Source: an uncultured Dehalococcoidales bacterium | GTDB lineage: Bacteria > Chloroflexota > Dehalococcoidia > Dehalococcoidales > E44-bin46 | Length of the DNA: 64,000 nucleotides | Reading direction: 5' to 3' | Assembly: GCA_964354655.1 (NCBI GenBank) | Contig: CAYHAL010000003.1 | Location: 3,670 to 67,669, forward strand | Shown: piece after piece, positions 14,640-37,125 of the stretch | How positions within the stretch are numbered: position 1 is the first letter of the stretch | Layout: the number at the start of each line of letters is the position of its first letter | Notes under the pieces: generated by a model | Told to the model about the DNA's origin: nothing | Database searches by the model: none | What the model saw: only the letters and a program-made list of their open reading frames with translations | Made by a program: the position numbers and the translations under genes

Positions 14640-14655
14640 GCGCTAAAAAATTATT

Positions 14656-14682
14656 GGGGGCGGTATTTAAAATACCGCCCCC
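14656..14682 (+). terminator. GC-rich intercistronic hairpin (partial terminator / mRNA stabiliser) after the SBP gene
   Basis: GGGGGCGGTATT (14656-14667) pairs with AATACCGCCCCC (14671-14682). There is no T-tract on the + strand, so probably not a full terminator. Confidence 0.4.
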
Positions 14683-14722
14683 AAAAGCAATCCAAGTTTT
14701 AGATCCGAGGTTGAACTAAGAT

Positions 14723-15592: not shown

Positions 15593-16556
15593 TATACGAA
15601 GGTTCAGGATGGGGGCACTACCGGCCTTAATCATAGGGCTCTCTATTATGCCCTTCTTCGCCAGGGAATACGTCGTTGAGGTCGCTATCCTATTTTTTAT
15701 CTACATAATCCTGGCTCAAAGCTACCGCCTGGTAACTACTACACATGACTGGACACTGTGCCATGTTGTGTTGTACGGTGTCGGTGCCTACACCAGTGGC
15801 TTAATAGCCAAGTATTTCGGTATCCCCGTTTGGGTATGCATCCCCATCGGAGGGGTGATGGCAAGCCTAGTAGGCGTAGGGGTCATTCAGCCTTTGCTGA
15901 GAACCGTCGGCTTCGGTTTCTTTATCGCCTCCTATGCTCTGGGGGAATTGATAAGGCTGATCTGGGTCAAGGTTCACACCCCCTTCGGAGGTCCCCGGGG
16001 TATTATAGACATCCCCTACCCTCCGGTAGTAGCCGGGATAGACTTTAGTAAACCTATCCCCTACTACTTCATGTGCCTTGTGGCAATGCTGGTATGCCTA
16101 TACCTTATGTACCGCGTAGACAAGTCGCGTATAGGGGATGCCTTTAAGTCTATCTCCATCCATCCCCTATTGGCGGAATCCATAGGGATAAGCGTTCCCA
16201 AATACAGAACACTAGCCATGGCAATCGGTGCCTTCTTTGCCGGCATCGCCGGTGCCCTTCTGGTTCACCGCCTCGGCGCTGTGGACCCGAGGGTGTTCGA
16301 CATCATCACCATGGTATATCTCGTCATCTGGGTGGTGGTAGGCGGCACCAATACCTTCTTGGGTCCCATAATCGGGGTTGTTGTGATGCAAGCCATCTTC
16401 GAATTCACACGCCCCTTCTTGGAAATGAGACCCATGTTTTTCGGCATCATCTTGATACTGTTCCTAGTCTTCCTGCCCGGCGGCATTGAGAGTATCATCG
16501 CTAAGGCTATGGCCCGATTCCGAGCACGACGACGTGTAGTAGCGAAAACAGGTTAA
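15579..16556 (+). CDS. livM: Branched-chain-amino-acid-type ABC permease (LivM family), unit 1
   Basis: 325-aa polytopic protein that overlaps the livH stop. The start is uncertain; an alternative ATG lies at 15609. Confidence 0.85.
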   Translation: MLQFNIRRFRMGALPALIIGLSIMPFFAREYVVEVAILFFIYIILAQSYRLVTTTHDWTLCHVVLYGVGAYTSGLIAKYFGIPVWVCIPIGGVMASLVGVGVIQPLLRTVGFGFFIASYALGELIRLIWVKVHTPFGGPRGIIDIPYPPVVAGIDFSKPIPYYFMCLVAMLVCLYLMYRVDKSRIGDAFKSISIHPLLAESIGISVPKYRTLAMAIGAFFAGIAGALLVHRLGAVDPRVFDIITMVYLVIWVVVGGTNTFLGPIIGVVVMQAIFEFTRPFLEMRPMFFGIILILFLVFLPGGIESIIAKAMARFRARRRVVAKTG

Positions 16557-16585
16557 GATTGCTCCCGCCAAGCTGGTTATTAAAA

Positions 16586-16630
16586 AATAACCCGAGTAAG
16601 TAGGTCATTACTCGGGTTATTTTTATTTTT
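16586..16630. terminator. Bidirectional Rho-independent terminator between convergent livM and livG
   Basis: AATAACCCGAGTAA (16586-16599) pairs with TTACTCGGGTTATT (16608-16621). An A-tract precedes it and TTTTATTTTT follows. Confidence 0.7.
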
Positions 16631-16671
16631 GTCGTTAAAATAGCCGTTACCGAGCTATAGGTAAGTTGATA

Positions 16672-17442
16672 TTAACCAAGAAGCTCTGCTCTTCCCAGGT
16701 AGGCTTCGATAACCTCTTCATTCGACTGTATTTCCTTGGGTTTGCCTTCAGCAAGCTTCCTCCCGAAACTGAGCACGGTTATGTAGTCGCACACTCCCAT
16801 GACCGTCTTCATATCGTGCTCTACCAGTAGCACGGTTATCCCCTCTTTCCGTATCCTCTTAATTATGCTTAACATATGTGCCTTTTCCGTAGGGTTCATA
16901 CCGGTAACCGGTTCATCTAGCATGAGCAGTTTTGGCTCTGCCGCCAGAGCAACACTAACCCCCAATGCCCGCATATAGCCGTGAGGAAGGTTTATAGCCA
17001 GTTCATCCTTGATGTGCGTCATCTCCATAAAGTCAACTATCTCCTCGGCCTTCTTCAGGGCTTCCCTTTCCACCCTTCTGGTGCTAGGAGTACTACCCAT
17101 CACCCCAAAAACATTTTCCCCGGCATGCAGGTGACGCCCAACGGATATATTTTGCAGCACAGTGAAATTCATAAACAACGCAGTCTGCTGGAAGGTCCGG
17201 ATGAGGCCCCTTCTGGCTACTTTACTTGGCGGGAGGATAGTTATATCCTCGCCCTGATACCATATAGTCCCCGTCGTTGGTAGATAGACCCCACTGATAA
17301 CATTATACAGGGTTGTCTTTCCCGAACCATTAGGGCCAATGAGCCCTCTGATTTCCCCTTCGTTCACCTCCATATCAAAATCGCTTAGAGCAGCCAAACC
17401 GCCGAAATACTTACTCACCCCTTTGACTTCAAGTAGAGCCAT
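16672..17442 (-). CDS. livG: Liv-type ABC ATP-binding protein (LivG family), unit 1
   Basis: Walker A GPNGSGKTT, Walker B LLMLDEP, and the LivG-type C-terminus VIEAYLG. I chose the ATG at 17442, which is preceded by GGAAAGGAGGG. Confidence 0.85.
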   Translation of the reverse strand: MALLEVKGVSKYFGGLAALSDFDMEVNEGEIRGLIGPNGSGKTTLYNVISGVYLPTTGTIWYQGEDITILPPSKVARRGLIRTFQQTALFMNFTVLQNISVGRHLHAGENVFGVMGSTPSTRRVEREALKKAEEIVDFMEMTHIKDELAINLPHGYMRALGVSVALAAEPKLLMLDEPVTGMNPTEKAHMLSIIKRIRKEGITVLLVEHDMKTVMGVCDYITVLSFGRKLAEGKPKEIQSNEEVIEAYLGRAELLG

Positions 17443-17836
17443 AAACCAGCCCTCCTTTCCTACCATGGTATGAATAAAAAGCAGAGCTACTGGTGTGAAT
17501 TTAGCATAGGTGGCTTAGTTTGTCAATAGAGTGTGGGTGGTGGTTCTGTTCGGCTGACGTTGATAACCCTAGAATAGATTAAGCAATTATCACCTTCAAA
17601 AGGCCTCATTAGCTGTCGGCAAAGCTTGTGCCTGTGGGATTTTATCAGCTTACGCCGCTCTTCATCCTCGCTAATGGTCCCCTCCTTCCACTTCTCGGCA
17701 ACAATGCTTGACACGAGGGCAGGCGTGTGCTACACTTCCCGCCGTAAGCTGGTAGTGGGCTGAAAAATAGCCGGCTTTTAAGCGTAACCACAATCGTTTA
17801 TTTTTGCTGCTCTAACAATAGCCAGAATTTTTATTT

Positions 17837-18673
17837 ATGATGTCTATTACATTAACAGAAACTCAAAAACAACGCCTGCGAGAATTGGATGCTGATACAA
17901 ACTTGGTAGAAAAGGTATTCAGCAATGCCCAAGAGAGGGACGCAAGTTTCAAGATGATAGAGAAAAGGTTGATTGGAGAGGAAAAACAGCGTTTACAAAA
18001 CCTCCGCAACTATCATCGCTACCCCATGATTTGCCAAGTAGAGAGGACCCTTGTAGATAAGCTTACAGAAGAAGGTTTTGTACAAGTCATTACTCCGATA
18101 ATAATAACTAAAAGGTTTTTAGAAAAGATGTCTATCACCGCCAACAATCCCCTGATAAATCAGGTTTTTTGGCTCAGTAAGAATAAATGTTTACGGCCTA
18201 TGCTGGCACCGAATCTTTATCATCTCTTAAGACGGCTTGTTCGCTTATGGGAAAAACCTATTCGTATTTTTGAAATAGGCCCATGCTTTCGCAAAGACTC
18301 TAAAGGGAGTGAGCATCTAAATGAGTTTACCATGTTAAACCTTGTTGAGTTGGGCTTATCCCAAGAAAGCAGACTTGAGCGGTTAAAAGAGTTGATTTCC
18401 CTCTTAATGGAGGCTGTAGGTATAAATGAGTACCAATTGGTTTCGAAGCCGTGTGAAGTCTATGGGGAAACAGTGGACATCATGGCTGGTACCGAACTCT
18501 GTTCGGCAGTCGTGGGTCCCCATCCATTAGATGACGCCTGGGGAATAGTCGACCCGTGGGTGGGATTAGGGTTTGGTTTGGAGAGGCTGGTGATGGTGAG
18601 ACAGGGATATCAAAATATTCAGAGAGTGGGACGCAGCCTCATATATCTTGATGGAATTAGACTGAACATTTAA
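17837..18673 (+). CDS. pylSc: Pyrrolysyl-tRNA synthetase, catalytic C-terminal protein (bacterial split form)
   Basis: 278 aa of class II aaRS core with PylRS-like segments: RPMLAPNLY, EIGPCFRKDSKGSEHLNEFTMLN and GLGFGLERL. It is followed by pylB and pylC. Confidence 0.9.
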   Translation: MMSITLTETQKQRLRELDADTNLVEKVFSNAQERDASFKMIEKRLIGEEKQRLQNLRNYHRYPMICQVERTLVDKLTEEGFVQVITPIIITKRFLEKMSITANNPLINQVFWLSKNKCLRPMLAPNLYHLLRRLVRLWEKPIRIFEIGPCFRKDSKGSEHLNEFTMLNLVELGLSQESRLERLKELISLLMEAVGINEYQLVSKPCEVYGETVDIMAGTELCSAVVGPHPLDDAWGIVDPWVGLGFGLERLVMVRQGYQNIQRVGRSLIYLDGIRLNI

Positions 18674-18715
18674 GTAATCTGATAAGTAATCTGATAAGAA
18701 GTTGATATTAAGATT

Positions 18716-19831
18716 GTGATAAGAAACAATAGCTGTTTTTTGATAGAGGAAATATTAGATAAAGCACTCTGCGAGGAGCCTCTAAGCAGGGGGGAGATTC
18801 TTTATCTACTTAGATTAAATAAAGCTGAAGAAGTAAACAAACTTTTTACAGTAGCACAAAGATTAAGACGTCGATACTTTGGTAATAACATTTTTCTTTA
18901 TGGGTTCTTGTACTTCTCCACGTGGTGTCGCAATAACTGCGCTTTCTGCTGTTATCGCGCCTCCAATAGATTATGCCAGCGGTATCGAAAGACTGACCGC
19001 CAAATAATTGAGGTAGCCCTCGACATGGCAGCATCCGGTGTTCACTTGCTCGATTTAACCATGGGGGAGGACCCTTTTTATTACGAAAAAGAGGATGGTT
19101 TTGAACCACTGTTGCATTTGATAAAAGAAGTTAAAAGGGAAACATCTTTACCTATAATGATTTCCTTTGGAGCTATTCCCGACGAAGTTTTAAAGGAACT
19201 ATTTGAGACAGGGGCGGAATGGTATGCTTGCTATCAGGAAACCCATAATGAAAAACTCTTCTATCAGCTTCGGTTGGGCCAGAGTTACAGTGATAGGCTT
19301 AACAAAAAATATAAGGCGGCTAGGTTGGGCCTACTCATAGAGGAGGGGATATTGAGTGGGGTGGGGGAATCATTAGATGATGTAGCTGACTCCATGGAAG
19401 AGATGCGGAAGATGGGGGCTCATCAGGTACGGGTTATGAATTTTATTCCTCAACAGGGAACCCCCATGCAGGATTTCCCACCGCCCCCCAAAATGCGTGA
19501 GCTGCTGATTATTGCTGTTCTGCGTCTACTATTTCCCCGTAGGTTGATACCTGCCTCTCTCGATGTATATGGCATTGATGGGCTCAAGGGAAAGCTAGAA
19601 GCCGGAGCTAATGTAGTGACTTCATTGATTCTTCCCCATTCGGAAATGGTGGGTGTAGCCCAAAGTACTTTGGATATCTGTGAAGGTTATCGAACGGTAA
19701 AAGGAATAACCCCTATACTCAATGAATTGGGATTAACCAAGGCAGAGCTTCATGATTATGTCTCATGGATTGAGAATGAAAGGAAAAGCTATATAAACAC
19801 ATACCGCTTCAGGGAAAAGGTGTTATTGTGA
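18716..19831 (+). CDS. pylB: Radical SAM methylornithine synthase
   Basis: 371 aa with the radical SAM motif CRNNCAFC. It sits between pylSc and pylC. GTG start. Confidence 0.9.
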   Translation: MIRNNSCFLIEEILDKALCEEPLSRGEILYLLRLNKAEEVNKLFTVAQRLRRRYFGNNIFLYGFLYFSTWCRNNCAFCCYRASNRLCQRYRKTDRQIIEVALDMAASGVHLLDLTMGEDPFYYEKEDGFEPLLHLIKEVKRETSLPIMISFGAIPDEVLKELFETGAEWYACYQETHNEKLFYQLRLGQSYSDRLNKKYKAARLGLLIEEGILSGVGESLDDVADSMEEMRKMGAHQVRVMNFIPQQGTPMQDFPPPPKMRELLIIAVLRLLFPRRLIPASLDVYGIDGLKGKLEAGANVVTSLILPHSEMVGVAQSTLDICEGYRTVKGITPILNELGLTKAELHDYVSWIENERKSYINTYRFREKVLL

Positions 19832-21009
19832 GAGTAGCCATTGTTGGGGGGAAACTGCAGGGAGTTGAAGCGGCTTTCCTAGCTCGTGAAGCAGGGTGGG
19901 AAGTAATTCTTATCGATAGGAAACAGAGCCCACCAGCAGCCAGATTATGCCAATCTTTTTATCACTGTGATGTTGTTAGAGATGTTTCATCTTTACCTCG
20001 GTTATTAGAAAAAGTTGATTTGATTATCCCGGCAGTTGAGGATGTTATTGCCCTTAGAGCTTTACAGAAATGTGCTGCCGAGATAAACATCCCTTTAGCT
20101 TATGATGCCAAAGCATATTTTATCAGCCATTCCAAGAAGCGTTCTAACCGCCTATTTGAAAAATTGGGCATTCCCTTGCCCCAAAGTTGGCCCCAGTGTG
20201 GACTGCCACTTATAGTAAAACCATCTGCCTCAAGCGGGAGTCATGGAGTATCCAAGCTATGCACTGAACAGGAACTGGGTGATTTTATTAAACGGGTAGG
20301 TTCAGGGCTGAAACACTGGATTTTACAGGAATATGTGGAGGGTCCGTCCTATTCTATCGAGGTCTTGGGTTTAGTTGGACGTTACGTAGCTCTCCAGGTC
20401 ACCGAGCTCGAGATGGATGGCGACTATGACTGTGAACGGGTTCTCGCCCCTGCCGAAATTCCAGAGTCTTTAGATAGGCAAATTAAAGAAATTGCCCTCA
20501 CTATTGCCAAGAGCCTTCGTTTGAAAGGAATTATGGATGTTGAGGTTATCCTTGACCATGGTGGTGTTCCTAGGGTGTTAGAAATTGATGCCCGACTTCC
20601 AAGTCAGACTCCTACCGCAGTTTATGAGTCCACAGGGATTAATATGTTGGAACTATTAGGGCACATATTTGTCACAGATACGATGCCTGTAATCCCTGAA
20701 ATAAAAGCATTAAGAGGAGTTGTCTACGAGCATATTAAGGTTTCCCAAAATGGTTTAGAATTTCTGGGAGAACATATTATAGGAGAAGTCGATTCCCTTG
20801 AAATTGTCCACGATTTTTTTGGAGCCGACGTAAGTCTGACAAACTTTAATTCATCGTCATTTCCTTGGGTAGCTACGTTGATTACTACCGGAGAAAGCCG
20901 AGAACAAGCGTGGCTTAAACGTCAGCAAGTTATTGAAAATATTAAAAGTTATCTTGGAAGACCCACTCGCTTCCAAAGCCAGCCTGAAGAGATGGTAAAA
21001 ACGGGTTAA
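19828..21009 (+). CDS. pylC: ATP-grasp 3-methylornithine--L-lysine ligase
   Basis: 393-aa ATP-grasp fold protein that overlaps the pylB stop by 4 nt. Its last 6 codons lie inside the pylT-derived repeat. Confidence 0.85.
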   Translation: MRVAIVGGKLQGVEAAFLAREAGWEVILIDRKQSPPAARLCQSFYHCDVVRDVSSLPRLLEKVDLIIPAVEDVIALRALQKCAAEINIPLAYDAKAYFISHSKKRSNRLFEKLGIPLPQSWPQCGLPLIVKPSASSGSHGVSKLCTEQELGDFIKRVGSGLKHWILQEYVEGPSYSIEVLGLVGRYVALQVTELEMDGDYDCERVLAPAEIPESLDRQIKEIALTIAKSLRLKGIMDVEVILDHGGVPRVLEIDARLPSQTPTAVYESTGINMLELLGHIFVTDTMPVIPEIKALRGVVYEHIKVSQNGLEFLGEHIIGEVDSLEIVHDFFGADVSLTNFNSSSFPWVATLITTGESREQAWLKRQQVIENIKSYLGRPTRFQSQPEEMVKTG

Positions 21010-21067
21010 TCGGGAAGATCACGCAGACTCTAAATTTGTGTAGCCGAGTGTAACTCTTGCCCCGCCA
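21003..21067 (+). pseudogene. Degenerate pylT copy (tRNA-Pyl-like; acceptor and T stems disrupted)
   Basis: The sequence is GGGTTAATCGGGAAGATCACGCAGACTCTAAATTTGTGTAGCCGAGTGTAACTCTTGCCCCGCCA. The D arm, the 6-bp anticodon stem, the CUA anticodon loop and the T loop are all retained. The 5' acceptor is shortened (GGG versus GGGGGG), and 4 nt are missing from the 3' T-stem/acceptor region relative to 29854..29925. Confidence 0.55.
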
Positions 21068-21099: not shown

Positions 21100-21266
21100 A
21101 ATTTAATAATTGGATAAGAGACAAGGGAAGATTCAGTGTGGTAGGTGGGTTGCGTTTAACACTGGGCTGATGAGTTGATTTCAAAGTAGTGAAAGGGGGT
21201 TAAAATGTTTTAATACGTGAGTGTTGTTACCAGCAGGCATTTTATCCAATAAAGGAGGTCGATACT

Positions 21267-21920: not shown

Positions 21921-21944
21921 AAATATGTAGAAAGGAGGTGATTG

Positions 21945-23363
21945 ATGATGGCAAAGACGCTACAGCGCATGGGAGATGGTCGTATGGTGGAGATGACCGA
22001 GGCTGAGGTGAGGAAAGACATAGAAGAGGGGACTAAAGATGCTGCTAGCAGAGCCAAGGTTCCCCCGCTTTCTGAAGATGAGATAAAGCATATATTGGAT
22101 ATTTACACTCGGCCAGAAAGGGTTGTCAGCGTAGAGCCGGGGAACGAAGTTGTTCTATCCCATGATGAGGGTACCGTTAAAATAAATGCTGGTGTGTGTG
22201 GTGGAGCCGGATTAGGGATAGATTGCGGCAGGACGGTTGCCTCTGAGCTTTACGAGAGGGCGCTAGGTGCTGATATTATAGAATACGGCCATATTGACTA
22301 CAGCTTTAAGCCAATAAGGCCTATTTTGGCTGATGAGCGAATATTGGTGGAGCGAGCCTTATTGGTTACTACTGCCCCCTTCCTTTACGGGGCGATGCCC
22401 AACTTAGGCTTATATACTCAACCTGAAGGGCCCTTCCCCAATCCAACAGAACTGTTAAACAAGGGCCTTATAAAAGAAGCCAGGGAAAGCGGTGAAAGGA
22501 TGGTCGAGCAGGCGACTAACGATATGGTTTATATAGCCAGTGGTATCTATGAAGCTGGAGCCGATGCAATCAACTTTGATACTACAGGAGCGTTTGGAGA
22601 TCTAGACTTTGCCGCCGCTTTGACAGCAACTGAGCGCCTTAAGAAAAAGTATCCTGATATGTGTATAGAGATGGGGATGGCAGGGGAGTTTGTTCTAGGA
22701 ATACACGGAACGATAACCTATGATGGGGTGCGTTTGGCAGGTTTATACCCTCATCAACAGGTTAAATTAGCCGAGAAAGCTGGGGTTACTATTTTCGGAC
22801 CGGTGTGCAATATCGTCACTTCTAGGTCGTGTGCCTGGAATATAGCCCGTGTCATTACCTTCACCAAAGCCTGTGCTAAAGCTTCAAAGATACCAATCCA
22901 CAATAATATGGGAATGGGGGTTGGTGGCATTCCCTTGAATGATACCCCACCGGTAGATGCTGTAACCAGGGCGTCAAAAGCAGCTGTGGAAATCTGCCAG
23001 TTAGATGGGGTGTAGGTAGGCATTGGAGACATTCATGGCATGCTCGAAGCTCACGCCATGGCCTCAGGTATGGGTGGAATGCGTACCGCCGGAGATCTGG
23101 TGGCACGTATGGAAATGGCCAGAGGCATGAGAATTAAAGAAGCGAAAGAGTATGTCGCCAGCAAATTGAAGGTCTCGTTGAGGGAGCTCTCTGACCCGAT
23201 AGTCATGGGTGAGGTGAGAGATGAGCTTAAGCTAGGCCTCATTGCCCAGATGCCTAATCGTCCTAAGGGGATAGAGGCCAAGTTCCGTATTGCTGAACTA
23301 TTAGGAATCGAAATTAACTCGGTGAATAGATTCAAAGAAAAAGCCGGGCTTCCTGTTCGTTAA
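21945..23363 (+). CDS. mtbB: Dimethylamine:corrinoid methyltransferase with an in-frame UAG (pyrrolysine) codon at 23013-23015
   Basis: Track ORFs 21942..23015 and 23040..23363 share one frame and are separated by only a TAG. The joined product is about 472 aa and matches my recollection of Methanosarcina MtbB throughout (GHIDYSFKP, LYGAMPNLGLY, GMGVGGIP, DAVTRASKA, then TAG, then MRTAGDLVARME...KEAKEYVA). Confidence 0.88.
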
Positions 23364-23388: not shown

Positions 23389-23427
23389 AAAAAGACATCC
23401 ACCACCCCATATGGGGTGGTGGATGTC
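23389..23427. terminator. Perfect 15-bp hairpin between convergent mtbB and mtmB (terminator, T-tract on the - strand side)
   Basis: GACATCCACCACCCC (23394-23408), loop ATAT, GGGGTGGTGGATGTC (23413-23427). GGAAAAA precedes it, giving a U-tract for the minus-strand transcript. Confidence 0.7.
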
Positions 23428-23446
23428 TAGTGAGTTAAGCAACCTT

Positions 23447-24847
23447 TTACAGCTTAAACTCGAACCCAATTTTCTCCATGGTTTTCATTGCCTGCCCCAG
23501 CACTTGTAGATGCTCATCGGTGGGCTTCAGAGTGATAACGTTGTAGCACTCCTGGAAGGTCTTTCCTAAGGGTGCCGTGTTGAAGTTCCTCTTTGGCCCT
23601 GTCCCCTCGTAGTGGGTCACCAGCTTATCAAGTAAGTAGTTCACCTTTTCTGTCTCCATGCCGGCTACAGCTCGGGCGGCATAAGCCATCATGCGTGCTT
23701 CTATTGGGGTGGTGTAGTCTAGTCTCGTGCCTTTGGCCGAGGCGCAACCGCTCATAATCTCACGACCGCTAGCAGTATCGGTAATAGCCTGCCCAGCCGC
23801 CTCCAGCAAGCACATCTCAGTGCATGGTCCAGCGGCAGTATAATACTGGTTACCGGTGATAAAGTGTGAGTGGCGCTCAATAGCCATATTGGCATGCCCA
23901 GCGATCAACAACGTCTCCCTAGCCGTTGTGATTCCCCAGCGCACATGAGTTGGTCCATCCAGATGCCAGTCTGCTCCCACCAGTACGGGAGAGTTTAGAT
24001 GAGTGGCGGTGCAAACGATGGTGGTCTCTTCGAGCCCTCCGGCCCAGCCTCCCATGATAGGCATCTGCTCACACATAACAATATCGCCGTTCATCCTGTA
24101 ATGAGCAACAAAGGTAAGCGCCTCGAGATCAATCTTGAGCTCGCATAGCTGACTTACCTCATGATTATCACATGGTCTCATTCCTTCAGGAAAATCGGCA
24201 GCGATAACTCCCGCCGTGGTAAGCGGAGTCTCAGGGCCCTAGAAGCCCATCCCGGGGCGACCAGCTCGCCGTACTGCTTCACGAAGCGCCATTGCTTCTG
24301 CTTTAGCCGCCAAAATATCCCATGGGGTATTGGATGCCAAGGGGTGTCCATAGATAGTATTCCAAACCCCGTTGACGATGCAGTCTACCAAGGGCTCCCT
24401 GGCGAATGCTTCATGCGTCTCAATAAAGATATCCTCACTGACTGGGGCTCCAGTCGGCCCACCTTGGCACAGGGGTGGGCAGGGGTCATCAAAACTTCGG
24501 CCAGTCACACGCCGGGCATCCCGTCCCTCACCGATGACGATCTCACGAGGGACACCAGCCATAGTGTTCAGTATCTCCTCTTCGGTGTACTTGATGACAC
24601 GGCCGGTATCGATGCATAAAGTCCCACAGGTGACCAGCATCTCAAGGCCGGCCTGGAATAGGCGGTCTATCATATCCATATCAGTGGGGATAATCTTGGT
24701 CTTGTCGAACTTAAGATTATACTTTTCCTTTAATTTCCTTGCTGTTTCGGGGATGATTTTTCGATCCCATTCCGCCTCATCTACTTTGGGACCGGTAAGT
24801 GCCCGATCATAACTCTCGAACACATCACCCCTCTCTTTAACTACCAT
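23447..24847 (-). CDS. mtmB: Monomethylamine:corrinoid methyltransferase with an in-frame UAG (pyrrolysine) codon at 24241-24239
   Basis: Track ORFs 24239..24847 (202 aa) and 23447..24181 are in frame, and only a TAG interrupts them. The context is GRPGMG-TAG-GPET. Downstream segments NHEVSQLCELKIDL, WHLDGP, AAGPCTEMCLLEA, ITDTASGREI and GKTFQECY match remembered MtmB. Confidence 0.88.
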
Positions 24848-24962
24848 TTTCGCCTCCTTTATTTTGATTAAATCTTAGTTCATCACAGCTAAAAACTAAC
24901 CTGATATACCACCTCCTTTCTCTTAATTTGACAACACTATCTCACCGTATAAAGTTATAGTA

Positions 24963-25149: not shown

Positions 25150-25857
25150 TTAGCCACCTAAATAGGCTTTCTTCACCTGTTCGTTTTCACGTAAGTCTTT
25201 GGCATCGCCCTTTAAGACAATGCTACCTGTCTCTAAGACATAGGCCTTTCGAGCCAGACTGAGAGCGAGGCGGGCATTCTGCTCCACTAAAACAATAGTT
25301 TTGCCCCCTTGGCTAATATCCTTTATGATTTTGGCGATCTCCATGACTAATATAGGCGACAAGCCCAGCGAGGGTTCATCCAAAAGGAGCAATTTAGGAT
25401 TGGACATCAGGCCACGCCCCATAGCCAGCATCTGCTGCTCACCACCGCTTAAGGTGCCGGCATATTGCTTCTGCCTTTCCTTTAGAACAGGAAAATGCCT
25501 AAAAACTTCTTCCAGGTCTCGGTTTACCCCGTCTTTATCTTCCCGCAGAAAGGCCCCCATGTAGAGGTTCTCCATCACCGTCATTTGGGGGAAGACCCTT
25601 CTTCCTTCGGGAACCTGAGCAATCCCCAGCTTATTGATTTTTTCGGGTGCTAATCTATCTATTCTCTGGCCTTCAAACCAGATTTCCCCCGAGGTGGGGT
25701 GCTTTAAGCCGGAGATAGCCCTCAAGGTGGTGGTTTTGCCTGCCCCATTGGAACCGATAAGGGTAACAATACTACCCTCTTCCACCTCCATGGAGACATC
25801 CCTAACGGCGGCTACCTTGTGATAATAAACCGTAACGTCCTTTACATTAAGCAACAC
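25150..25857 (-). CDS. livF: Liv-type ABC ATP-binding protein (LivF family), the only livF in the window
   Basis: Walker A GSNGAGKTT, signature LSGGEQQM, Walker B LLLLDEP. GTG start. It is preceded in frame by a 12-codon relic of a LivG C-terminus (EDAIEVYLGAEE, 25858-25893). Confidence 0.85.
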   Translation of the reverse strand: MLLNVKDVTVYYHKVAAVRDVSMEVEEGSIVTLIGSNGAGKTTTLRAISGLKHPTSGEIWFEGQRIDRLAPEKINKLGIAQVPEGRRVFPQMTVMENLYMGAFLREDKDGVNRDLEEVFRHFPVLKERQKQYAGTLSGGEQQMLAMGRGLMSNPKLLLLDEPSLGLSPILVMEIAKIIKDISQGGKTIVLVEQNARLALSLARKAYVLETGSIVLKGDAKDLRENEQVKKAYLGG

Positions 25858-25967: not shown

Positions 25968-27800
25968 TTACTCCAAATGGGGATGCCTAGGGAAGTGCAT
26001 ACTCTCTATGAAGACCCGGCTGAAGTCCTTTAGATAGGAAAGCTCGAAGTATTCCACCTGCTCCGTCAGTCTTTGAATCTCTTCCCACTTCCCTCGATTT
26101 AGAAGGCAGAGCTTCGCTCCCTGTCCCGCCGTATTACCCACTGGCTTAATCTTGTTTAAGGGGAACTCGGGTAGCATTCCGATCCGAAGGACACTCTCCT
26201 TACTGACATAATTTCCAAAAGCCCCTGCCAAGTAGACCTTCTCCACCTCATTCAGGGTCACTCCCAACTCCCGCAACGCGATCTCTACCCCTGAGCGAAT
26301 AGCTCCCTTGGCCAACTGTAGCTCTCTCACATCCTGCTGGGTCAGGTAAATGGGTTTACTCCCATCACTCACCAGGAACTGAAGTTGGCCTTTCTCCCCC
26401 CGATGGATGCGATCACTGATGGGGAGGTTCGTCCGTTTCCCAAAGTTTCCCTTCTCATTGATTAACCCTACTTTGCAGAGCTCCCCCCCCAAGTCTATCA
26501 GTCCCGAACCACAGATCCCTTTTGGGACCCCATCCCCAATTATTTCCAGCCTTAAATCCTTGTCGTCTAGGAAAACGTGAGCCACTGCTCCAGGAAAAGC
26601 ACCCATTCCATACTTGATCCGTGCCCCCTCAAATGCTGGCCCCGCTGGTGTGGAGCATGCCAGTAAACGGTCTTTGTTTCCTAAAACAATTTCAGCGTTA
26701 GTTCCTATATCCACAAAGAGCTGGATACCTTTAGCTTGGTGAAGCCTGGTATAGAGAATACCGGCTGTGATGTCTGCTCCCACATAGCCTGAGATGCTGG
26801 GTAGGATGTGCACTTGCCCTTCTGGGTTCATGTCCAAGCCCAGCTCTAGCGCTGGCAGTATTAAGTTATCCCTCAGCACCGGGATGAAGGGGCTATGGTC
26901 AATGTTGGAGGGGTCTATGCCCGTGAAGAGGTGAATCATAGTGGGGTTCCCTGCCACAGTGGCTTTGTAGATATGGACAGGGCTCACCCTAGCTGCTTGA
27001 CACAACTGCTTAATCACCATGTTGATCCCTGAAGTTACCGCCATTTGCAGCTCCCTTAAACCCTCTTCTCCCTGCTCATGGACTTTTTTGATTCGACTGA
27101 TGACATCGTCCCCAAAGCTTCGCTGGGGGTTCATCCGGGAACGTACTGCAAGCTCCACACCTGTGTTTAGGCTTAAGAGATAGCCAGCTAGGGTTGTCGT
27201 CCCAATGTCTATAGCCACACCATACTGGGCTTCGGTTGTGTCCCCTGGTTCCAGGTCTAATACATGGTTTGCTGCCCAGGTTACCGTAAATTTAAAATCC
27301 CCTTCCCTAAGGAGGTTTGGGGCTTTCCTCAGAACTTGTAGGGGGAAAGTCAGTTGACCTTCCCCGAGTTCTTCTTGGAAACGAACGGTATCCGGGCGTT
27401 GGTCCTCTTGGCTTGGCGTGGGAAGCTCTAAATAAGCCTTTTTAACTCCGCTGTCCAAGGGGATACGAAGTACCTTGTTTAGTAGTTCCTTGGCGCGGAC
27501 AAGCTCTTCTACTTCAGGAATCTCCAGAACCAAATCCCGGTCAATATGCTGGATACAGGAAAGACGCCAGCCGGCTTCAAGCTCTGCCTCTGTCAGGTGC
27601 ACTCGCTCTGATTCAGCAGGCGCTCTAGCCCCCTTTGTGAAGAGGGCTCGACACTTCCCGCAGGTTCCCATCCCTCCACAAGCACTTGGCACGGAATAAC
27701 CCTGCCTGACAAGAAAGTGGAAAAGGTTCTCCCCTTCTTTAGCTTTTAACCTTTTCTTCTGGGGAAGGATGACGATGTTATATGTCTTTTCCTTCATCAT
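25968..27800 (-). CDS. RamA-like reductive activase of corrinoid enzymes (N-terminal 2Fe-2S ferredoxin + ASKHA/DUF4445 domain)
   Basis: 610 aa. The N-terminus has the plant-type ferredoxin motif CGGMGTCGKCR...C, followed by a long ASKHA-like region (DIGTTT, DIGTNAE). Confidence 0.75.
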   Translation of the reverse strand: MMKEKTYNIVILPQKKRLKAKEGENLFHFLVRQGYSVPSACGGMGTCGKCRALFTKGARAPAESERVHLTEAELEAGWRLSCIQHIDRDLVLEIPEVEELVRAKELLNKVLRIPLDSGVKKAYLELPTPSQEDQRPDTVRFQEELGEGQLTFPLQVLRKAPNLLREGDFKFTVTWAANHVLDLEPGDTTEAQYGVAIDIGTTTLAGYLLSLNTGVELAVRSRMNPQRSFGDDVISRIKKVHEQGEEGLRELQMAVTSGINMVIKQLCQAARVSPVHIYKATVAGNPTMIHLFTGIDPSNIDHSPFIPVLRDNLILPALELGLDMNPEGQVHILPSISGYVGADITAGILYTRLHQAKGIQLFVDIGTNAEIVLGNKDRLLACSTPAGPAFEGARIKYGMGAFPGAVAHVFLDDKDLRLEIIGDGVPKGICGSGLIDLGGELCKVGLINEKGNFGKRTNLPISDRIHRGEKGQLQFLVSDGSKPIYLTQQDVRELQLAKGAIRSGVEIALRELGVTLNEVEKVYLAGAFGNYVSKESVLRIGMLPEFPLNKIKPVGNTAGQGAKLCLLNRGKWEEIQRLTEQVEYFELSYLKDFSRVFIESMHFPRHPHLE

Positions 27801-27812
27801 TTGTTGGGTGGC

Positions 27813-28565
27813 TTATCTAGCCTTAAGACCCCGCTGGATCCATTCCCTTTCCCCCTCAACGCACTTTTGGGTTGACTTCTCTCGCACCGTGCCAAGGGGC
27901 ATAGCACAGGCATAAGACTTCCGCGGGTCCATCATGCACGACTCAGTGAGGTGCACTCCGATGTGGCTTCCGTCGACAACGGTGAATAACTTCTTCTGTT
28001 CCCGCGTGTCCCAATCTCCGTAACCAGGACTCCACCAGTAGACTACTACCCCACCGCAATCTCTATATGCCGGACACTTCTTGCCGATACAGATGCCGTG
28101 GGTGATTGCTTGATAGCCCTCGGGGCGGACATGGTCTTGGATTATCTCCCTCACCTTATAGGCCATGATATCCACAGCCGCTGAGCCAAACATATCCAAA
28201 ATATATCCCAGAACAGAATCCCCACCCTGGATAAGCTTCATAGCCTCCTCCTCCACACGCGGTCCAATGGTGATTATAAAAGCGGCTAGCTCTTTTGCCT
28301 CACGATGGCGAAGCGCCAAATCCCGGCTGTCAAATGAAACACCACCCTCGACCTCTACAGAAGAAGAGGTTACTCTCCCTATTTGGGAAATACCGTAACA
28401 CGCTACCGGCTCTAGTAGGGTCGGCCCAATCTCCATTGCCTGGTGAAAGACTTTTTGAATAGCCGGTGATGCTTGACTCGAGTTAGGATAGCCCAAATAA
28501 CGCCACACCTCATCTGAGCTTACCTCCACGTTTGAGAACTCAGCCTCAGGTACTATCTGAAGCAT
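27813..28565 (-). CDS. MetH activation-domain-like protein (vitamin B12-dependent methionine synthase activation region family)
   Basis: 250 aa with EVWRYLGY near the N-terminus and SPGYGDW...LF...IGVHLTESCMMDPRKS near the C-terminus. Both resemble the Met_synt_B12 domain, as recalled from memory. Confidence 0.5.
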   Translation of the reverse strand: MLQIVPEAEFSNVEVSSDEVWRYLGYPNSSQASPAIQKVFHQAMEIGPTLLEPVACYGISQIGRVTSSSVEVEGGVSFDSRDLALRHREAKELAAFIITIGPRVEEEAMKLIQGGDSVLGYILDMFGSAAVDIMAYKVREIIQDHVRPEGYQAITHGICIGKKCPAYRDCGGVVVYWWSPGYGDWDTREQKKLFTVVDGSHIGVHLTESCMMDPRKSYACAMPLGTVREKSTQKCVEGEREWIQRGLKAR

Positions 28566-28586: not shown

Positions 28587-29390
28587 TTAACTCATTTTGC
28601 TTCTTACATACCGAACATATTGAAGACAGTGGGCATCAATCCCTAATAGAGCTTCTGAGGCTCGCAGGATGTTTTTCATTTCTTCATCCTTGGGATTAAT
28701 AACAGCCATATCCAATCCTGCCTCAAGAAGCATGGCTAAAAAGGCTTGGTTGAGCAGGGTGCGGCTGGGTAATCCAAAGGAGACATTGGATAACCCTGTT
28801 GTTGTCTTCACCCCTCGGCTCCCATAGCACCTCTTGATCTCCCGTATGGTATTGATGACAACACGGGCTTGGTCTGGATTACTCCCGATGGACATCACTA
28901 AAGGGTCTATGAACAACCGCTGCAGACTTACTCCGGCTTCTTCTAGAGTATTAATTAGCTGTTCGACTTCCTGAAGGCGCTCCTCCACGGTGTTAGGCAT
29001 CCCCGTCTTTCCCCCCATGGTCAGACCGATAATATCGGCATCGTACCCTTTAACAATGGGGATGAGCCCCTGTTGTAGTCTAGGGTCATTATTGATGGAG
29101 TTGATAACAGGGCGGGCTCGACAAAGCTTTAGTCCTGCTGCCATAGCCTCAGGTTTAGGGGTGTCGATGGCTAGGCGTACCTCTCCCACCTCATCATAAA
29201 TAAGCCCAATCACCCACTTCATGTCATCAATCTCCTGCTCCATGCTGGTAGCAGTATTAATATCAAGAATGTCAGCCCCAGCCTCTACCTGCTCTCGGGC
29301 AAGACGCCGGATAGTAGCTTCATCCTTGGCTTGAAGAGCCTCCTTGACCGCTTTTCGCGTCGAGTTCAATAATTCTCCAATAATTAACAC
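28587..29390 (-). CDS. Pterin-binding methyltetrahydrofolate:corrinoid methyltransferase (MeTr/MtgA/AcsE-like)
   Basis: 267 aa of DHPS-like pterin-binding barrel: IIGELLNSTRK, GADILDINT and TTGLSNVSFGLP. Confidence 0.75.
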   Translation of the reverse strand: MLIIGELLNSTRKAVKEALQAKDEATIRRLAREQVEAGADILDINTATSMEQEIDDMKWVIGLIYDEVGEVRLAIDTPKPEAMAAGLKLCRARPVINSINNDPRLQQGLIPIVKGYDADIIGLTMGGKTGMPNTVEERLQEVEQLINTLEEAGVSLQRLFIDPLVMSIGSNPDQARVVINTIREIKRCYGSRGVKTTTGLSNVSFGLPSRTLLNQAFLAMLLEAGLDMAVINPKDEEMKNILRASEALLGIDAHCLQYVRYVRSKMS

Positions 29391-29461: not shown

Positions 29462-29824
29462 TTAATCCTTAGCCCCCACCTCTCGTGTCTTTCCCCCCAA
29501 ATTGTCTAAATAGGCAATCCGGCGACGCTTAAAAACTGTTGCCGAATATTTTTCAATCTTCCATTTAGGAATTCCACATTTCTCGCATGTCCTAGAAAAC
29601 CATTTATTACGAAGCCATCGGGCAGCACGACTATTTCTAGAATCGTGTATCACCATCTGTTTATTACAATGAGTAACCACATAAGCATAAGAATCACTGG
29701 TAATTTCAAAGGTTTTGATTCCATGGAGAACTCCCCGCCGGGAAGGCCATAGTTTTATCTTTTCTACCAATTTAAAAAGGGGGACTCGTCTCCAATAGAT
29801 TTTTTTTCGTGTCTTACCCGACAA
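29462..29824 (-). CDS. pylSn: Pyrrolysyl-tRNA synthetase N-terminal tRNA-binding protein (bacterial split form)
   Basis: 120 aa with a TTG start behind GGGGGAGAGAG. Segments KLWPSRRGVLHGIK..., NSRNSRAARWLRNKWFSRTCEKCG resemble the PylRS N-domain (zinc-binding, basic). It lies immediately downstream of pylT. Confidence 0.8.
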   Translation of the reverse strand: MSGKTRKKIYWRRVPLFKLVEKIKLWPSRRGVLHGIKTFEITSDSYAYVVTHCNKQMVIHDSRNSRAARWLRNKWFSRTCEKCGIPKWKIEKYSATVFKRRRIAYLDNLGGKTREVGAKD

Positions 29825-29853
29825 CTCTCTCCCCCATTATTTTGATCAAATTG

Positions 29854-29925
29854 TGGCGGGGGGTCCGAGAGTTACACTCGGCTACACAAATTTAGAGTCT
29901 GTGTGATCTTTCCGATTAACCCCCC
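29854..29925 (-). tRNA. pylT: tRNA-Pyl (anticodon CUA), CCA encoded
   Basis: The minus-strand sequence is GGGGGGT-T-AATC-GGAAA-GATC-A-CACAGA-CTCTAAA-TTTGTG-TAG-CCGAG-TGTAACT-CTCGG-ACCCCCC-G-CCA. It has a 7-bp acceptor, one nucleotide between acceptor and D stem, a 5-nt D loop without GG, a 6-bp anticodon stem, a 3-nt variable loop and a non-canonical T loop. These are the published hallmarks of tRNA-Pyl. Confidence 0.9.
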
Positions 29926-29940
29926 GTTTTTACCATGCCT

Positions 29941-30771
29941 TCACTGAACACAACTGGCATGAACAAACATGGTAGCCACACCAATCTCCAGCACATCATG
30001 AATCAAACGCTCTTTGACCAAGAAATAAGCCTCTTCACTTAATCCCAGCGGTATCCCGGGAGCAGCAATAAAAGTTTCTGGCTTGATATGTCTTGCCTGT
30101 ATAATATTAGCCGAAGGTGAAGCATCAAAAAATACTGTATATCGCCTAAGTGCCTCTTCTAGATTCCTTTCCACTGTAATTTCATGCCCTTTAACCAGTG
30201 ACTCCATTCTATCTTGATTAGGGTCAAAAGCTGCTACCTTCGCTCCCTTCTTTTTAAGAGATAAAACTGCATTCCAGCCCACCCGACCTGCTCCCCCAAT
30301 CACTAACACCTGGCGCTGGCTTAAATCTCCTGCCATGGCTTCTAATGCCGAAACATATCCTTTTGCTGTTGCCTCTACATTATCAATAATCCTCCTTAAG
30401 GGAAAGTTCAGGGCAATAAACCGGTTATCATCAGCCAAAAAAACAATGTCTGCGCCTTTCTCAATCCCTTCCGCCAGTCCAGCTATATCGCTATCCCTTG
30501 TTTTAAAAGCATTAACTCCAATGTGAATCAAAATTCCTTCAACCGCCTCAACAAAGTTTTCAATAACTCCTTGTCCCGAGGTTATGGGAACCACAGCTAC
30601 CGTATGGGAACCGATGGCAGCTCTTACCTTTTCTTCGCTGTCTTCTATAGAGCGACTGGCAATCTCTTTGAGTGACAAACCTGTTTTTCGAACTAACTCA
30701 GCCTCATAGGCAGGAAGTTTCTGTATTATATCCATTATATCTTCTTTTTTCAGGCGCGTCACCTCATTCAC
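29941..30771 (-). CDS. pylD: Pyrrolysine synthase (NAD-dependent dehydrogenase)
   Basis: 276 aa with the Rossmann motif VLVIGGAGRVGWNA. It is adjacent to pylT/pylSn and completes the pylBCD set. Confidence 0.85.
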   Translation of the reverse strand: MNEVTRLKKEDIMDIIQKLPAYEAELVRKTGLSLKEIASRSIEDSEEKVRAAIGSHTVAVVPITSGQGVIENFVEAVEGILIHIGVNAFKTRDSDIAGLAEGIEKGADIVFLADDNRFIALNFPLRRIIDNVEATAKGYVSALEAMAGDLSQRQVLVIGGAGRVGWNAVLSLKKKGAKVAAFDPNQDRMESLVKGHEITVERNLEEALRRYTVFFDASPSANIIQARHIKPETFIAAPGIPLGLSEEAYFLVKERLIHDVLEIGVATMFVHASCVQ

Positions 30772-30997: not shown

Positions 30998-31205
30998 GAA
31001 GCCAAACTGGTTAGTATTCCCTTCCTTTATAAGCCTGGTGCTGCGCTAGCACTGGGGAAATTTATAGCATAATCGGTCTTGCTGACGCTAGTGTAAAGGC
31101 AAAAGAGTGGATCCCAAAATGGTGAAAGGAGGTGAGAAATTAGGGTTAGGATTAATTTAGTTTCAAAATAGTGAGGTTAAAAAAATTAAAGGAAGGAGGG
31201 GAAAA

Positions 31206-32678
31206 ATGATTAGAGGAACGAGAGCCTCATATACACAACTTTCAGGCTGTGGTCTCAATATGTTTACCGATGATGAATTAGCTGAGCTGCATAGAGCCAC
31301 ACTGGATGTTCTAGAAGATGGCGGCATCATGGTGCTCAATGATGAAGCGCAGGAGATTTTCTACTCCCACGGCTGTAAAGTCGATAAGAAAACTAACATC
31401 GTCAAGATACCCCCTTACCTCGTCAATGAGGCAATAAATTCAGCTCCATCAAAGGTACTGCTTGCCGGTCGAAATCCCAAGTATGACATCGTCTTGGAAG
31501 GCACCAGGGTGGCAAACACCACCTTTGGTGTAGGCATAAAGGTGCTTGATTTAGACACGGGCAAACACAGAAACTCGACAAACAAAGATCTGGCTGAATC
31601 CGCAATATTAGCCGATGCTATTGAGGGAGTAGATGTTTTTACCCAGTCAGTGGTCCCCAGAGATGCACCTAGTCAGGTGGAAGACCTTATTGCTGCCGAG
31701 ACATGTCTTAGCAATTGTAGCAAACACTTCCACCATGTTGATATATTGTCTACCGAGAGTGTCAGAAGGTATTTTGACATGGGTGCTGCCATAGCCGGAA
31801 GCGCTGAGGAGATGAGGCGGCGACCGGTTTGTTCTATTCTAATCTGCCCGGTCAGCCCGTTGCAGCTTAGTCCTGAAGCCTGCGAGGTTATTATTGAATC
31901 GGCAAGGTTAGGCATACCCTGTAACATTTTGTCAATGGCGCTATCTGGGGGTACTGCCCCAGTCACCAATGCAGGAACACTGATAGTCCATAATGCCGAG
32001 GTGCTGGGGGGCATAACTTTAAGCCAGCTTACTAAGAAGGGAGCACCGGTAATCTATGGCAGCTCCACCACCATGTTCGATCTAGCCCTGGCCATCGCAC
32101 CGGTGGGAGCACCGGAAATGGGCATGATAAGCGCAGCGGTAGCCAAGCTTGGCCAGTATTACAACCTGCCGACTTATGTCTCCGGGACCTAGGCAGATTC
32201 TAAGGTACCTGATGCGCAGGCAGCTCACGAAAAAACGATAACAAATCTGCTGCCGGCCATCGCTGGGGCTAATCTGATTTATGGCATGGGTATGTTAGAA
32301 TCAGGACAGACTTGGAGTCATGAGCAACTGGTAATTGATAACGACATTGTAACTATGGTTAAACGGGTGATTCAGGGGATCGACGTTACCGATGATACAA
32401 TGGCCGTTGACATCGTAAAGCAGGCTCATAAGATAAAAGACTTCTTACATCAGAAACACACCATTCAGTTTATGAGAAGTCAATCAAGACCAAAATTGAT
32501 TGACCGCACTACCCGGGGAACTTGGGAGGCTAAGGGAGGCAAAGATTTAACCCAGAGGGCAAAAGAAGAAGCACGCAGGATCATAAAGACCCATCAACCT
32601 GAGCCTTTAAGCGATGATGTAAAGAAGACGCTACGCGAAATTGTTGACAGTGCTAGAAAAGAACTTGTACCTGATTGA
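31206..32678 (+). CDS. mttB: Trimethylamine:corrinoid methyltransferase with an in-frame UAG (pyrrolysine) codon at 32190-32192
   Basis: Track ORFs 31206..32192 and 32286..32678 share one frame. The only interruption is the TAG in ...YVSGT-TAG-ADSKVPDAQAAHEKT.... The joined product of about 490 aa has an MttB-family sequence (LNDEAQEI, ANLIYGMGMLESG). Confidence 0.9.
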
Positions 32679-32715: not shown

Positions 32716-33366
32716 GTGGCAAAAGCACAAGAGATATTAGCAGCGGCAAAAAAAGCCATTATTGACTACGATGTGGTTAAGGCTGAGGAGGTTGCCAGGG
32801 AGGCTTTGGCTAGTGGTGTTGATCCGGTGGCACTGATAGAAAAGGGGTTTACTGCTGGAATAGCTGAGGTTGGTGACCGTTTTGATAAGGGGGAGGCATA
32901 CTTGCCAGAATTAATATTGGCGGCTGATGCCATGAAAGCAGGAACAGCAGTATGTGAGGCGGCACTCCCTAAAGGAACAATTAAGGAAAAGAAGAAGGTA
33001 GTAATAGGGACGGTGGAAGGAGATATTCACGACATCGGGAAGTCAATTGTTGCTTCCTTTTTAGCCGCCAACGGATTTGAGGTTCACGACATCGGTAGAG
33101 ATGCTCCTGCTGAGAAATTTGTGGAAACAGCTCGTGAGGTAAAAGCAGATGTGGTTGGGGCTAGCGCTCTATTGACAACAACTATGGAGCAGCAGAAGAA
33201 GATAGTGGAAGCGCTGAAAGAAGCCGGGCTGCGAGATAAAGTTAAAATAATTGTCGGTGGAGCACCAACCAGCCAGGAATGGGCTGAACAGATCGGAGCC
33301 GATGCCTATGCTGAAAATGCTGCGGAGGCAGTAGCTAAGGTAAAGCAATTAACCGGTTTGCAATAA
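32716..33366 (+). CDS. mttC: Trimethylamine-specific corrinoid protein (B12-binding)
   Basis: GTG at 32716 behind AAGGAGAG. The GDIHDIGK motif is present. It is highly similar to 21267..21920. The track start at 32641 overlaps mttB and is unlikely. Confidence 0.85.
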   Translation: MAKAQEILAAAKKAIIDYDVVKAEEVAREALASGVDPVALIEKGFTAGIAEVGDRFDKGEAYLPELILAADAMKAGTAVCEAALPKGTIKEKKKVVIGTVEGDIHDIGKSIVASFLAANGFEVHDIGRDAPAEKFVETAREVKADVVGASALLTTTMEQQKKIVEALKEAGLRDKVKIIVGGAPTSQEWAEQIGADAYAENAAEAVAKVKQLTGLQ

Positions 33367-35100: not shown

Positions 35101-35186
35101 GCCAGGTATAAGCTAGACAGAGCAGTACCTAGCCGGGGTGACAGGGATTAGTTACCAGCCCCGGCTAGGTTTGATAGGAAGTTTAT

Positions 35187-37023: not shown

Positions 37024-37056
37024 GAGAAATCCACACTAAATCAACACTGAGGAATA

Positions 37057-37095
37057 GAAAAAGCCTGAGTAATTATAATTACTCAGGCTTTTTCT
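37057..37095. terminator. Bidirectional Rho-independent terminator between convergent livM and livG (unit 2)
   Basis: AAGCCTGAGTAATT (37061-37074) pairs with AATTACTCAGGCTT (37077-37090), flanked by an A-tract and a T-tract. Confidence 0.75.
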
Positions 37096-37125
37096 AAACT
37101 GGTACCGTAAAAGTCTATTACCTAA

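Follow-up and report, generated by a model that had tools for sequence, protein, structure and literature searches.

We describe here a gene for a monomethylamine:corrinoid methyltransferase, mtmB, which carries an in-frame TAG at the predicted position of pyrrolysine (Pyl) and lies in a 64-kb stretch of DNA from an uncultured Dehalococcoidales bacterium (the whole stretch analysed, hereafter the window). The sequence features of the region make it very probable that this is a functional Pyl-type mtmB. The more comprehensive statement, namely a functional Pyl-type mtmB of a Dehalococcoidales-like bacterium with its corrinoid carrier encoded in trans, is on balance probable in our view. A Pyl codon at the canonical site of mtmB comes as no surprise and is known from earlier work. 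The gene belongs to a known family and is typical of it, apart from one mildly unusual trait: throughout the clade, mtmB is uncoupled from a corrinoid gene. The gene and its predicted Pyl codon are located as follows:

23447..24847, minus strand: mtmB coding sequence, monomethylamine:corrinoid methyltransferase, 466 codons plus TAA, read through one TAG
24239..24241, minus strand: predicted pyrrolysine codon of mtmB, in-frame TAG at codon 203, placed by alignment to MtmB1 and by the column in the homologues

Identity and intactness of mtmB

The frame 24847..23447 on the minus strand comprises 467 codons and contains the TAG at 24241-24239 as its sole internal stop, followed by the terminal TAA at 23449-23447. 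The list of open reading frames (ORFs) confirmed that the two pieces 24847..24239 (202 aa) and 24181..23447 (244 aa) share one common frame, as the initial annotation had stated, and the TAG that it placed after codon 202 can be read directly from the translation, in the context GRPGMGF-TAG-GPETPL. Its assignment of the gene to mtmB was also upheld: the joined product matched the Pfam family PF05369 (MtmB) from end to end (profile positions 2-449 of 450) with 658 bits at a cut-off of 25, and it matched the Methanosarcina barkeri MtmB1 chains 1l2q, 1nth and 1tv2 with an E value of 2.5e-160. NCBIfam is without an MtmB model. A separate pairwise alignment gave 55% identity to M. barkeri MtmB1 across 451 residues. 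In both alignments, residue 203 of the query pairs with chain residue 202 of MtmB1, the pyrrolysine site, which is written X in 1l2q and 1nth and K in 1tv2; the motif GRPGMG-x-Pyl-GPET is kept between the two proteins. Thus, the alignment agrees with the position of Pyl in Methanosarcina MtmB given in the initial annotation, residue 202; one additional residue upstream in the present protein shifts the codon to number 203.

For comparison, we assembled mtmB homologues from 20 related loci of species-representative genomes and 28 from metagenomes. A single in-frame TAG occupied the Pyl202 column in all 28 intact homologues, which span the Dehalococcoidales, Bacillota, Spirochaetes and Thermoleophilia (four phyla), and at one locus, L018, mtmB was frameshifted. 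The ratio of nonsynonymous to synonymous substitution rates (dN/dS), computed against four orthologues with 73-82% protein identity, was 0.09-0.18 before the TAG (codons 1-202) and 0.10-0.12 after it (codons 204-466). Because dN/dS past the TAG matches that ahead of it, the second half of mtmB is most probably translated. With protein-level constraint equal on both sides, a pseudogene or a truncated product of 202 residues is very unlikely. The possibility raised earlier that this copy might be pseudogenic was therefore dismissed, given a dN/dS of about 0.1 on either side and a TAG kept throughout the intact homologues.

Pyrrolysine decoding in the window

The genes expected for a bacterial Pyl system, pylT, a split pylSn/pylSc, pylB, pylC and pylD, are all present in the window:

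17837..21009, plus strand: pylSc (17837-18673), pylB and pylC, matching NCBIfam TIGR02367, TIGR03910 and TIGR03909, all above their cut-offs
29462..30771, minus strand: pylD (30771..29941) and pylSn (29824..29462), matching TIGR03911 and TIGR03912 above their cut-offs
29854..29925, minus strand: pylT, tRNA-Pyl with anticodon CUA, between pylD and pylSn, detected by ARAGORN at a relaxed threshold

The tRNA-Pyl was missed by the default ARAGORN and Rfam tRNA scans, and a guessed pattern for the anticodon arm also found nothing; relaxed ARAGORN together with a scan for the CTCTAAA loop recovered pylT and a degenerate second copy. The former folds as a cloverleaf whose D arm is short and whose anticodon stem is long, with a CUCUAAA loop (z = -3.6). 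Among the ORFs of the window that were scanned, none encoded a SepRS.

The 100 nt past the TAG of mtmB match the Rfam family PYLIS_1 (RF01982) in register at a sub-threshold score (43.8 versus a gathering score of 70 bits), and folding revealed no stable stem-loop 3' of the UAG, the RNA being no more stable than shuffled sequence (z = 0.02). A dedicated downstream RNA element for this UAG appears not to be needed. Of about 52 other long ORFs of the window, 11 end in TAG (about 21%), so that within this scope the codon is not depleted in this Pyl-decoding organism. Since TAG is a common ordinary stop here, the insertion of Pyl is probably competitive with termination or conditional.

The degenerate second copy of pylT (20997-21067, plus strand) overlaps the 3' end of pylC and is also present in the related locus L023. 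The two copies are 87% identical over about 100 nt including flanks. In the second one, the acceptor and T stems are lost through deletions of 3 nt and 4 nt, and no cloverleaf forms (z = -0.4). They are inverted relative to each other and bracket a segment of 8.8 kb with mtbC, mtbB, mtmB, livF, RACo, the gene of the second methyltransferase (MT2) and pylSn. In locus L049, the order is unsplit (pylSc-C-pylBCD-pylSn-MT2-RACo, where C is a corrinoid gene). The inverted copies look like the scar of a rearrangement that separated pylSc-B-C from pylD-pylT-pylSn.

Corrinoid protein genes and related loci

Besides mtmB, the methylamine island of the window encodes two further Pyl methyltransferases, two corrinoid proteins and the components predicted for methyl transfer and corrinoid activation:

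21942..23363, plus strand: mtbB, dimethylamine methyltransferase, in-frame TAG 23013-23015, convergent with mtmB; Pfam PF09505, Rfam PYLIS_2 with 64.8 bits, above the gathering score
31206..32678, plus strand: mttB, trimethylamine methyltransferase, in-frame TAG 32190-32192; Pfam PF06253, Rfam PYLIS_3 with 93 bits
21267..21920, plus strand: corrinoid protein gene 'mtbC', upstream of mtbB and 1.5 kb from mtmB; Pfam B12-binding and B12-binding_2, TIGR02370 with 248 bits versus a cut-off of 215
32716..33366, plus strand: corrinoid protein gene 'mttC', downstream of mttB and 8 kb from mtmB; TIGR02370 with 251 bits, GTG start with a Shine-Dalgarno sequence
28587..29390, minus strand: pterin-binding methyltransferase (methyl-corrinoid:tetrahydrofolate, MT2 step); Pfam PF00809, NCBIfam NF005719 with 279 bits versus a cut-off of 259
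25968..27800, minus strand: RACo/RamA-type reductive activase of corrinoid proteins; Pfam RACo_C_ter, Raco_middle, RACo_linker and Fer2

Searches of the 64 kb by tblastn and by a profile hidden Markov model on the six-frame translation found exactly these two corrinoid protein genes, neither of which flanks mtmB. Hence, both statements of the initial annotation on this point, that mtmB has no adjacent corrinoid gene and that the window holds two such genes for three Pyl methyltransferases, proved right. The neighbours of mtmB are a gene for a LivF-like ATPase upstream and the convergent mtbB downstream, an arrangement other than the mtmCB operon of Methanosarcina; this difference concerns the layout of the operon and not membership in the protein family. 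The products of 'mtbC' and 'mttC' are 71% identical, while MttC and MtmC of Methanosarcina are 41% identical (PMC9842639), and both score below the NCBIfam equivalog cut-off for MtbC (about 240 versus 350). When compared with solved structures in order to assign them to the MtmC or the MttC type, both window proteins matched M. barkeri MttC (7xcn) above MtmC (3ezx). This criterion was dropped because bacterial corrinoid proteins encoded directly beside mtmB also favour MttC (7xcn).

The comparative view covered up to 10 kb on each side of mtmB in the relatives. The closest MtmB relatives (72-98% identity) come from Dehalococcoidales metagenome-assembled genomes (MAGs) or metagenome contigs. 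The methylamine genes and the syntenic substrate-binding protein likewise have their closest counterparts in Dehalococcoidales MAGs. Consistent with this origin, the housekeeping protein LeuB of the window shows 81-82% identity to Chloroflexota proteins; one match at 84% is labelled Omnitrophota and probably misbinned. A corrinoid gene stands beside mtmB in none of about 20 Dehalococcoidales-type loci and in 18 of 26 loci from other phyla. Because a corrinoid gene flanks mtmB in no Dehalococcoidales-type locus, the orphan state of mtmB is a conserved trait of the clade and not an accident of the window. The closest relatives form three subclades, which match three gene arrangements:

Type A, mttC<-mttB<- ->mtmB <-mtbB, no corrinoid gene before mtbB: L001, L003, L009, L026, L027 and L029
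Type B, mttC<-mttB<- ->mtmB: L002, L022, L025, L028 and L041
Type C, the arrangement of the window, livF->mtmB-> <-mtbB<-mtbC<-pylC: L021, L023 and L024

In types A and B, the number of carriers per methyltransferase is even lower than in the window. For type A, an inspection of the individual ORFs of L003 and L009 verified that the corrinoid gene is missing before mtbB, with surE following, and one corrinoid gene is visible for three methyltransferases in each of these two loci.

In a tree of the corrinoid proteins, the sequences grouped by lineage and not by the neighbouring methyltransferase; for instance, the Thermoleophilia paralogues, one encoded beside mtmB and one beside mtbB, clustered together. 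According to this tree, 'mttC' of the window is the orthologue of the sole corrinoid gene seen in most related loci, and 'mtbC' is a paralogue restricted to the type-C subclade. Two further loci, L049 and L050, encode corrinoid proteins 68% and 73% identical to the mtbC product of the window, with the genes located away from any gene of a substrate methyltransferase (MT1). The gene of L049 lies between pylSc and pylB in a module pylSc-C-pylBCD-pylSn-MT2-X-RACo, and that of L050 (Dehalococcoidales MAG GCA_028716225.1) beside MT2 alone. In L050 (8042-11520), the corrinoid gene and MT2 are situated directly downstream of prfA, encoding release factor 1, which reads UAG, and of prmC; this adjacency may be coincidental.

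The mtmB locus itself was found to vary between close relatives. A comparison with the metagenome contigs L023 and L024, in which the genes are arranged as in the window, gave a nucleotide identity of 95-100% in the flanks, whereas mtmB with its upstream intergenic region (window positions about 25200-23450) is only 81-90% identical, the intergenic part 35-71%. The boundaries of this divergence are the end of livF on one side and the stop and terminator of mtmB on the other, and L021 carries the mtmB allele of the window (98% protein identity). Given that the drop in identity is limited to mtmB and its upstream region, mtmB behaves as a separately exchanged single-gene cassette. On the metagenome contig Ga0315314_1010082 (L048:1800-5100), which carries a close relative of the island, RACo, livF and pylC are 93-96% identical to those of the window and mtmB is deleted save for its last 44 codons. 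Its slot is taken, behind the same upstream region, by a corrinoid gene whose product is 75-76% identical to that of mtbC of the window, and a convergent mtbB-like gene (59% identical) now directly follows the former upstream region of mtbC.

Proposed methyl transfer and the carrier of MtmB

We propose that UAG codon 203 would be read as pyrrolysine by pylT, the split pylSn/pylSc and pylBCD of the island, probably in competition with termination or conditionally, yielding an MtmB of 466 residues. Judged from homology and gene content, MtmB would transfer the methyl group to a trans-encoded corrinoid protein in its Co(I) state, the pterin-binding methyltransferase would hand it on to tetrahydrofolate (THF), RACo would re-reduce oxidised corrinoid, and MetFV/HdrA/MvhD would process methyl-THF. 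The content of the island fits such a course from methylamine via methyl-corrinoid and methyl-THF to further processing; Pyl insertion, the substrate and the choice of the corrinoid partner are what we infer.

The foremost candidates for the carrier of MtmB are the two island paralogues 'mtbC' and 'mttC', and we would give nearly an even chance to one of them being the partner. Sharing of a corrinoid protein by the orphan mtmB is plausible, since related genomes place the corrinoid gene within the common pyl/MT2/RACo module or beside MT2 alone, and MtqC of Eubacterium limosum, one corrinoid protein for several methyltransferases, offers a precedent (PMC8604678). More tentatively, and with somewhat greater doubt than conviction, we hypothesize that one lineage-specific carrier (or two near-identical paralogues) may serve the non-homologous MtmB, MtbB and MttB, that the Methanosarcina rule of one cognate carrier may fail here, and that mtmB-like genes may be exchangeable cassettes on a common pyl/MT2/RACo module. 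Several points weigh against a shared carrier. In Methanosarcina, MtbB methylates MtbC and not MtmC, and methyltransferases are specific for their cognate carriers (PMC9842639); a carrier common to three non-homologous enzymes would be a deviation from this system, the only one studied by biochemistry. The similarity to solved MttC and MtmC structures does not discriminate between partners, stand-alone corrinoid genes exist in related genomes (L049 and L050), and the 64 kb of the source genome, with at most 10 kb on either side in the relatives, leave room for a dedicated MtmC elsewhere.

The last two points lead to the alternative that a dedicated MtmC-type carrier is encoded elsewhere in the genome, so that mtmB would be orphaned genomically and not functionally. 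Sharing and a corrinoid gene located elsewhere had both been named in the initial annotation, and the data of the window fit either. The placement of corrinoid genes away from substrate methyltransferases, between pylSc and pylB or beside MT2 after prfA/prmC, speaks for it, as do the partner specificity of the Methanosarcina enzymes and the size of the corrinoid family of the window, with more than 8000 homologues in metagenomes. However, neither the window nor the 10 kb on each side of mtmB in about 20 related loci contains a dedicated mtmC, and the stand-alone corrinoid genes sit with shared components (pyl, MT2, RACo), which is a better fit to a general carrier than to an MtmB-specific one. 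We therefore regard a dedicated carrier as rather unlikely, though well worth considering beside a carrier shared within the island.

The two remaining alternatives concern mtmB itself. If the TAG stopped translation, mtmB would be a decaying or split pseudogene giving a fragment of 202 residues, possibly with a separate product of 244 residues from the ATG at 24181. The frequent use of TAG as an ordinary stop in the window, the sub-threshold PYLIS_1 match and the unremarkable RNA stability past the TAG would agree with this, but the gene is free of frameshifts and additional stops, dN/dS is the same past and ahead of the TAG, the TAG is invariant in homologues of four phyla, the full Pyl machinery is adjacent, and the stretch of 19 codons that separates the TAG from the ATG at 24181 stays in frame and aligns without gaps to MtmB1. 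This makes a pseudogene extremely improbable. It is also improbable, if to a lesser degree, that the protein is a Pyl-containing MtmB homologue with a methyl donor other than monomethylamine. Non-Pyl MtmB homologues with other substrates are reported in PMC13044021, monomethylamine as the substrate is assigned here by sequence, and the binding proteins of the adjacent ABC transporters score below every NCBIfam cut-off. Against a different donor stand the full-length identity of 55% to MtmB1 with the Pyl codon and its flanking motif retained, and the co-occurrence with mtbB and mttB, which supply and consume successive methylamines. A Pyl-dependent MtmB acting on monomethylamine is thus the reading that we follow below.

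Probable transcription unit and gene neighbourhood

Putative signals for transcription and translation and a conserved leader box were found around mtmB:

24853..24857, minus strand: Shine-Dalgarno sequence GGAGG, 5 nt upstream of the mtmB ATG at 24847, by direct reading
24896..24922, minus strand: leader box GAGAAAGGAGGTGGTATATCAGGTTAG, conserved in the leader comparison, about 73 nt ahead of the mtmB start codon
24962..24991, minus strand: sigma-70-like promoter TTGACA-18-TAATAT upstream of mtmB, from a consensus scan with 10/12 matches, a pattern match only
23389..23428, minus strand: intrinsic-terminator hairpin with a 16-bp stem and U run directly after the mtmB stop, from folding

The Shine-Dalgarno sequence is kept in all aligned leaders. 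The terminator sits between the convergent mtmB and mtbB and has a folding energy of -33.6 kcal/mol (z = -5.7), with none of 200 shuffles equally stable. Based on the promoter-like site, the conserved leader and the strong terminator, mtmB appears to be monocistronic and its own transcription unit. The leader box GAGAAAGGAGGTGGTATATCAGGTTAG is kept in all 11 Dehalococcoidales-type mtmB leaders compared, while the remaining intergenic region diverges, and RNAalifold yielded no consensus RNA structure for it. Its interpretation as a -10 promoter element was ruled out by the absence of a TAnnnT hexamer, and that as a small upstream ORF with a TAG by the lack of a canonical start and of conservation of the TAG. 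Related GTGAAAGGRGGT boxes are located 76-82 nt upstream of mttB (near 31124-31151, plus strand) and of mtbC (near 21191-21210, plus strand). The upstream regions of the island had no 10-mers in common besides purine runs resembling Shine-Dalgarno sequences. The leader boxes may be a shared regulatory signal for methylamine genes.

On the same strand upstream of mtmB lie pylD, pylT, pylSn, MT2, a gene for a protein of 250 aa, RACo and the gene of the LivF-like ATPase. The 250-aa protein (27813-28565, minus strand), encoded between MT2 and RACo, resembles the methionine-synthase activation domain only weakly (PF02965, E 1e-5), and in L049 the same slot is occupied by a protein of 252 aa with no Pfam hit on record. 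Such a protein may belong to the common module as a conserved component that is so far uncharacterised. Past the methylamine island, the segment 38553-48351 (plus strand) encodes HdrA-like flavoproteins (417 and 543 aa) whose ends overlap, together with MvhD, MetV, MetF and a multi-domain flavin/iron-sulphur oxidoreductase of 1485 aa. This set of genes is consistent with an electron-bifurcating methylene-THF reductase complex handling methyl-THF.

Two sets of Liv-type ABC transporter genes and the gene of the LivF-like ATPase are interleaved with the methylamine genes (13128-17466, 25150-25857 and 33628-37893). Each set comprises a lipoprotein-like substrate-binding protein, two permeases and a LivG-like ATPase. 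Related loci encode the binding protein beside mttC in synteny, at 63-76% identity, and both Liv-type binding proteins scored below the cut-off of every NCBIfam model. These transporters are candidates for methylamine uptake, replacing the archaeal permeases MttP, MtbP and MtmP.

Comparison with known systems and significance

The founding pyrrolysine protein, M. barkeri MtmB1 (1L2Q, 1NTH, 1TV2), resembles the MtmB of the window in full-length homology, the UAG column and the flanking motif. In contrast to M. barkeri, the organism here is a bacterium, has its synthetase divided between pylSn and pylSc, and probably delivers the methyl group to tetrahydrofolate via a pterin-binding MT2 instead of to coenzyme M via MtbA. 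Furthermore, mtmC is not in an operon with mtmB here, PYLIS_1 is matched below threshold, and no stable structure follows the UAG. The mtmB/mtmC loci of Bacillota (Pelosinus, Selenomonadaceae, Syntrophomonadaceae), Spirochaetes and Thermoleophilia share with the window the TAG in the same column, pylSc/B/C/D/Sn and RamA-like genes, but their MtmB proteins are 54-62% identical to the one described here and most of these loci have the abutting corrinoid gene that the Dehalococcoidales-type loci lack. Split pylSn/pylSc and Pyl methyltransferases were described for metagenomes of the Chloroflexi/Dehalococcoides lineage by Mukai et al. 2017 in mBio (PMC5424206), and as these Chloroflexi Pyl systems were already reported in 2017, a Pyl-type mtmB in this phylum is not new. 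The accessible part of that paper maps the co-occurrence of PylRS and SepRS and does not describe the methyltransferase/corrinoid gene architecture.

The modular layout that we propose as a model for the orphan mtmB corresponds to that of the MtqC system of E. limosum, in which one MtqC, one THF methyltransferase (MtqA) and one activase (RamQ) are shared by separately encoded MT1 enzymes (Ellenbogen et al. 2021, PMC8604678). However, the enzymes sharing MtqC are all non-Pyl and belong to one superfamily (MttB), whereas the would-be sharers here are mutually non-homologous Pyl enzymes, and sharing is suggested by gene counts.

Methylamines are major precursors of methane, and in anoxic sediments methanogens face competition from bacteria that channel these compounds to tetrahydrofolate instead. 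The locus represents a complete, compact Pyl-dependent system for mono-, di- and trimethylamine in a Chloroflexota lineage abundant in the subsurface. If the orphan mtmB indeed uses the carrier of another methyltransferase, partner specificity would be more plastic than the biochemistry of Methanosarcina suggests. Three MT1 enzymes together with a single carrier, a single MT2 and a single activase would then suffice as a minimal set, allowing simpler reconstitution of the system and simpler annotation rules.

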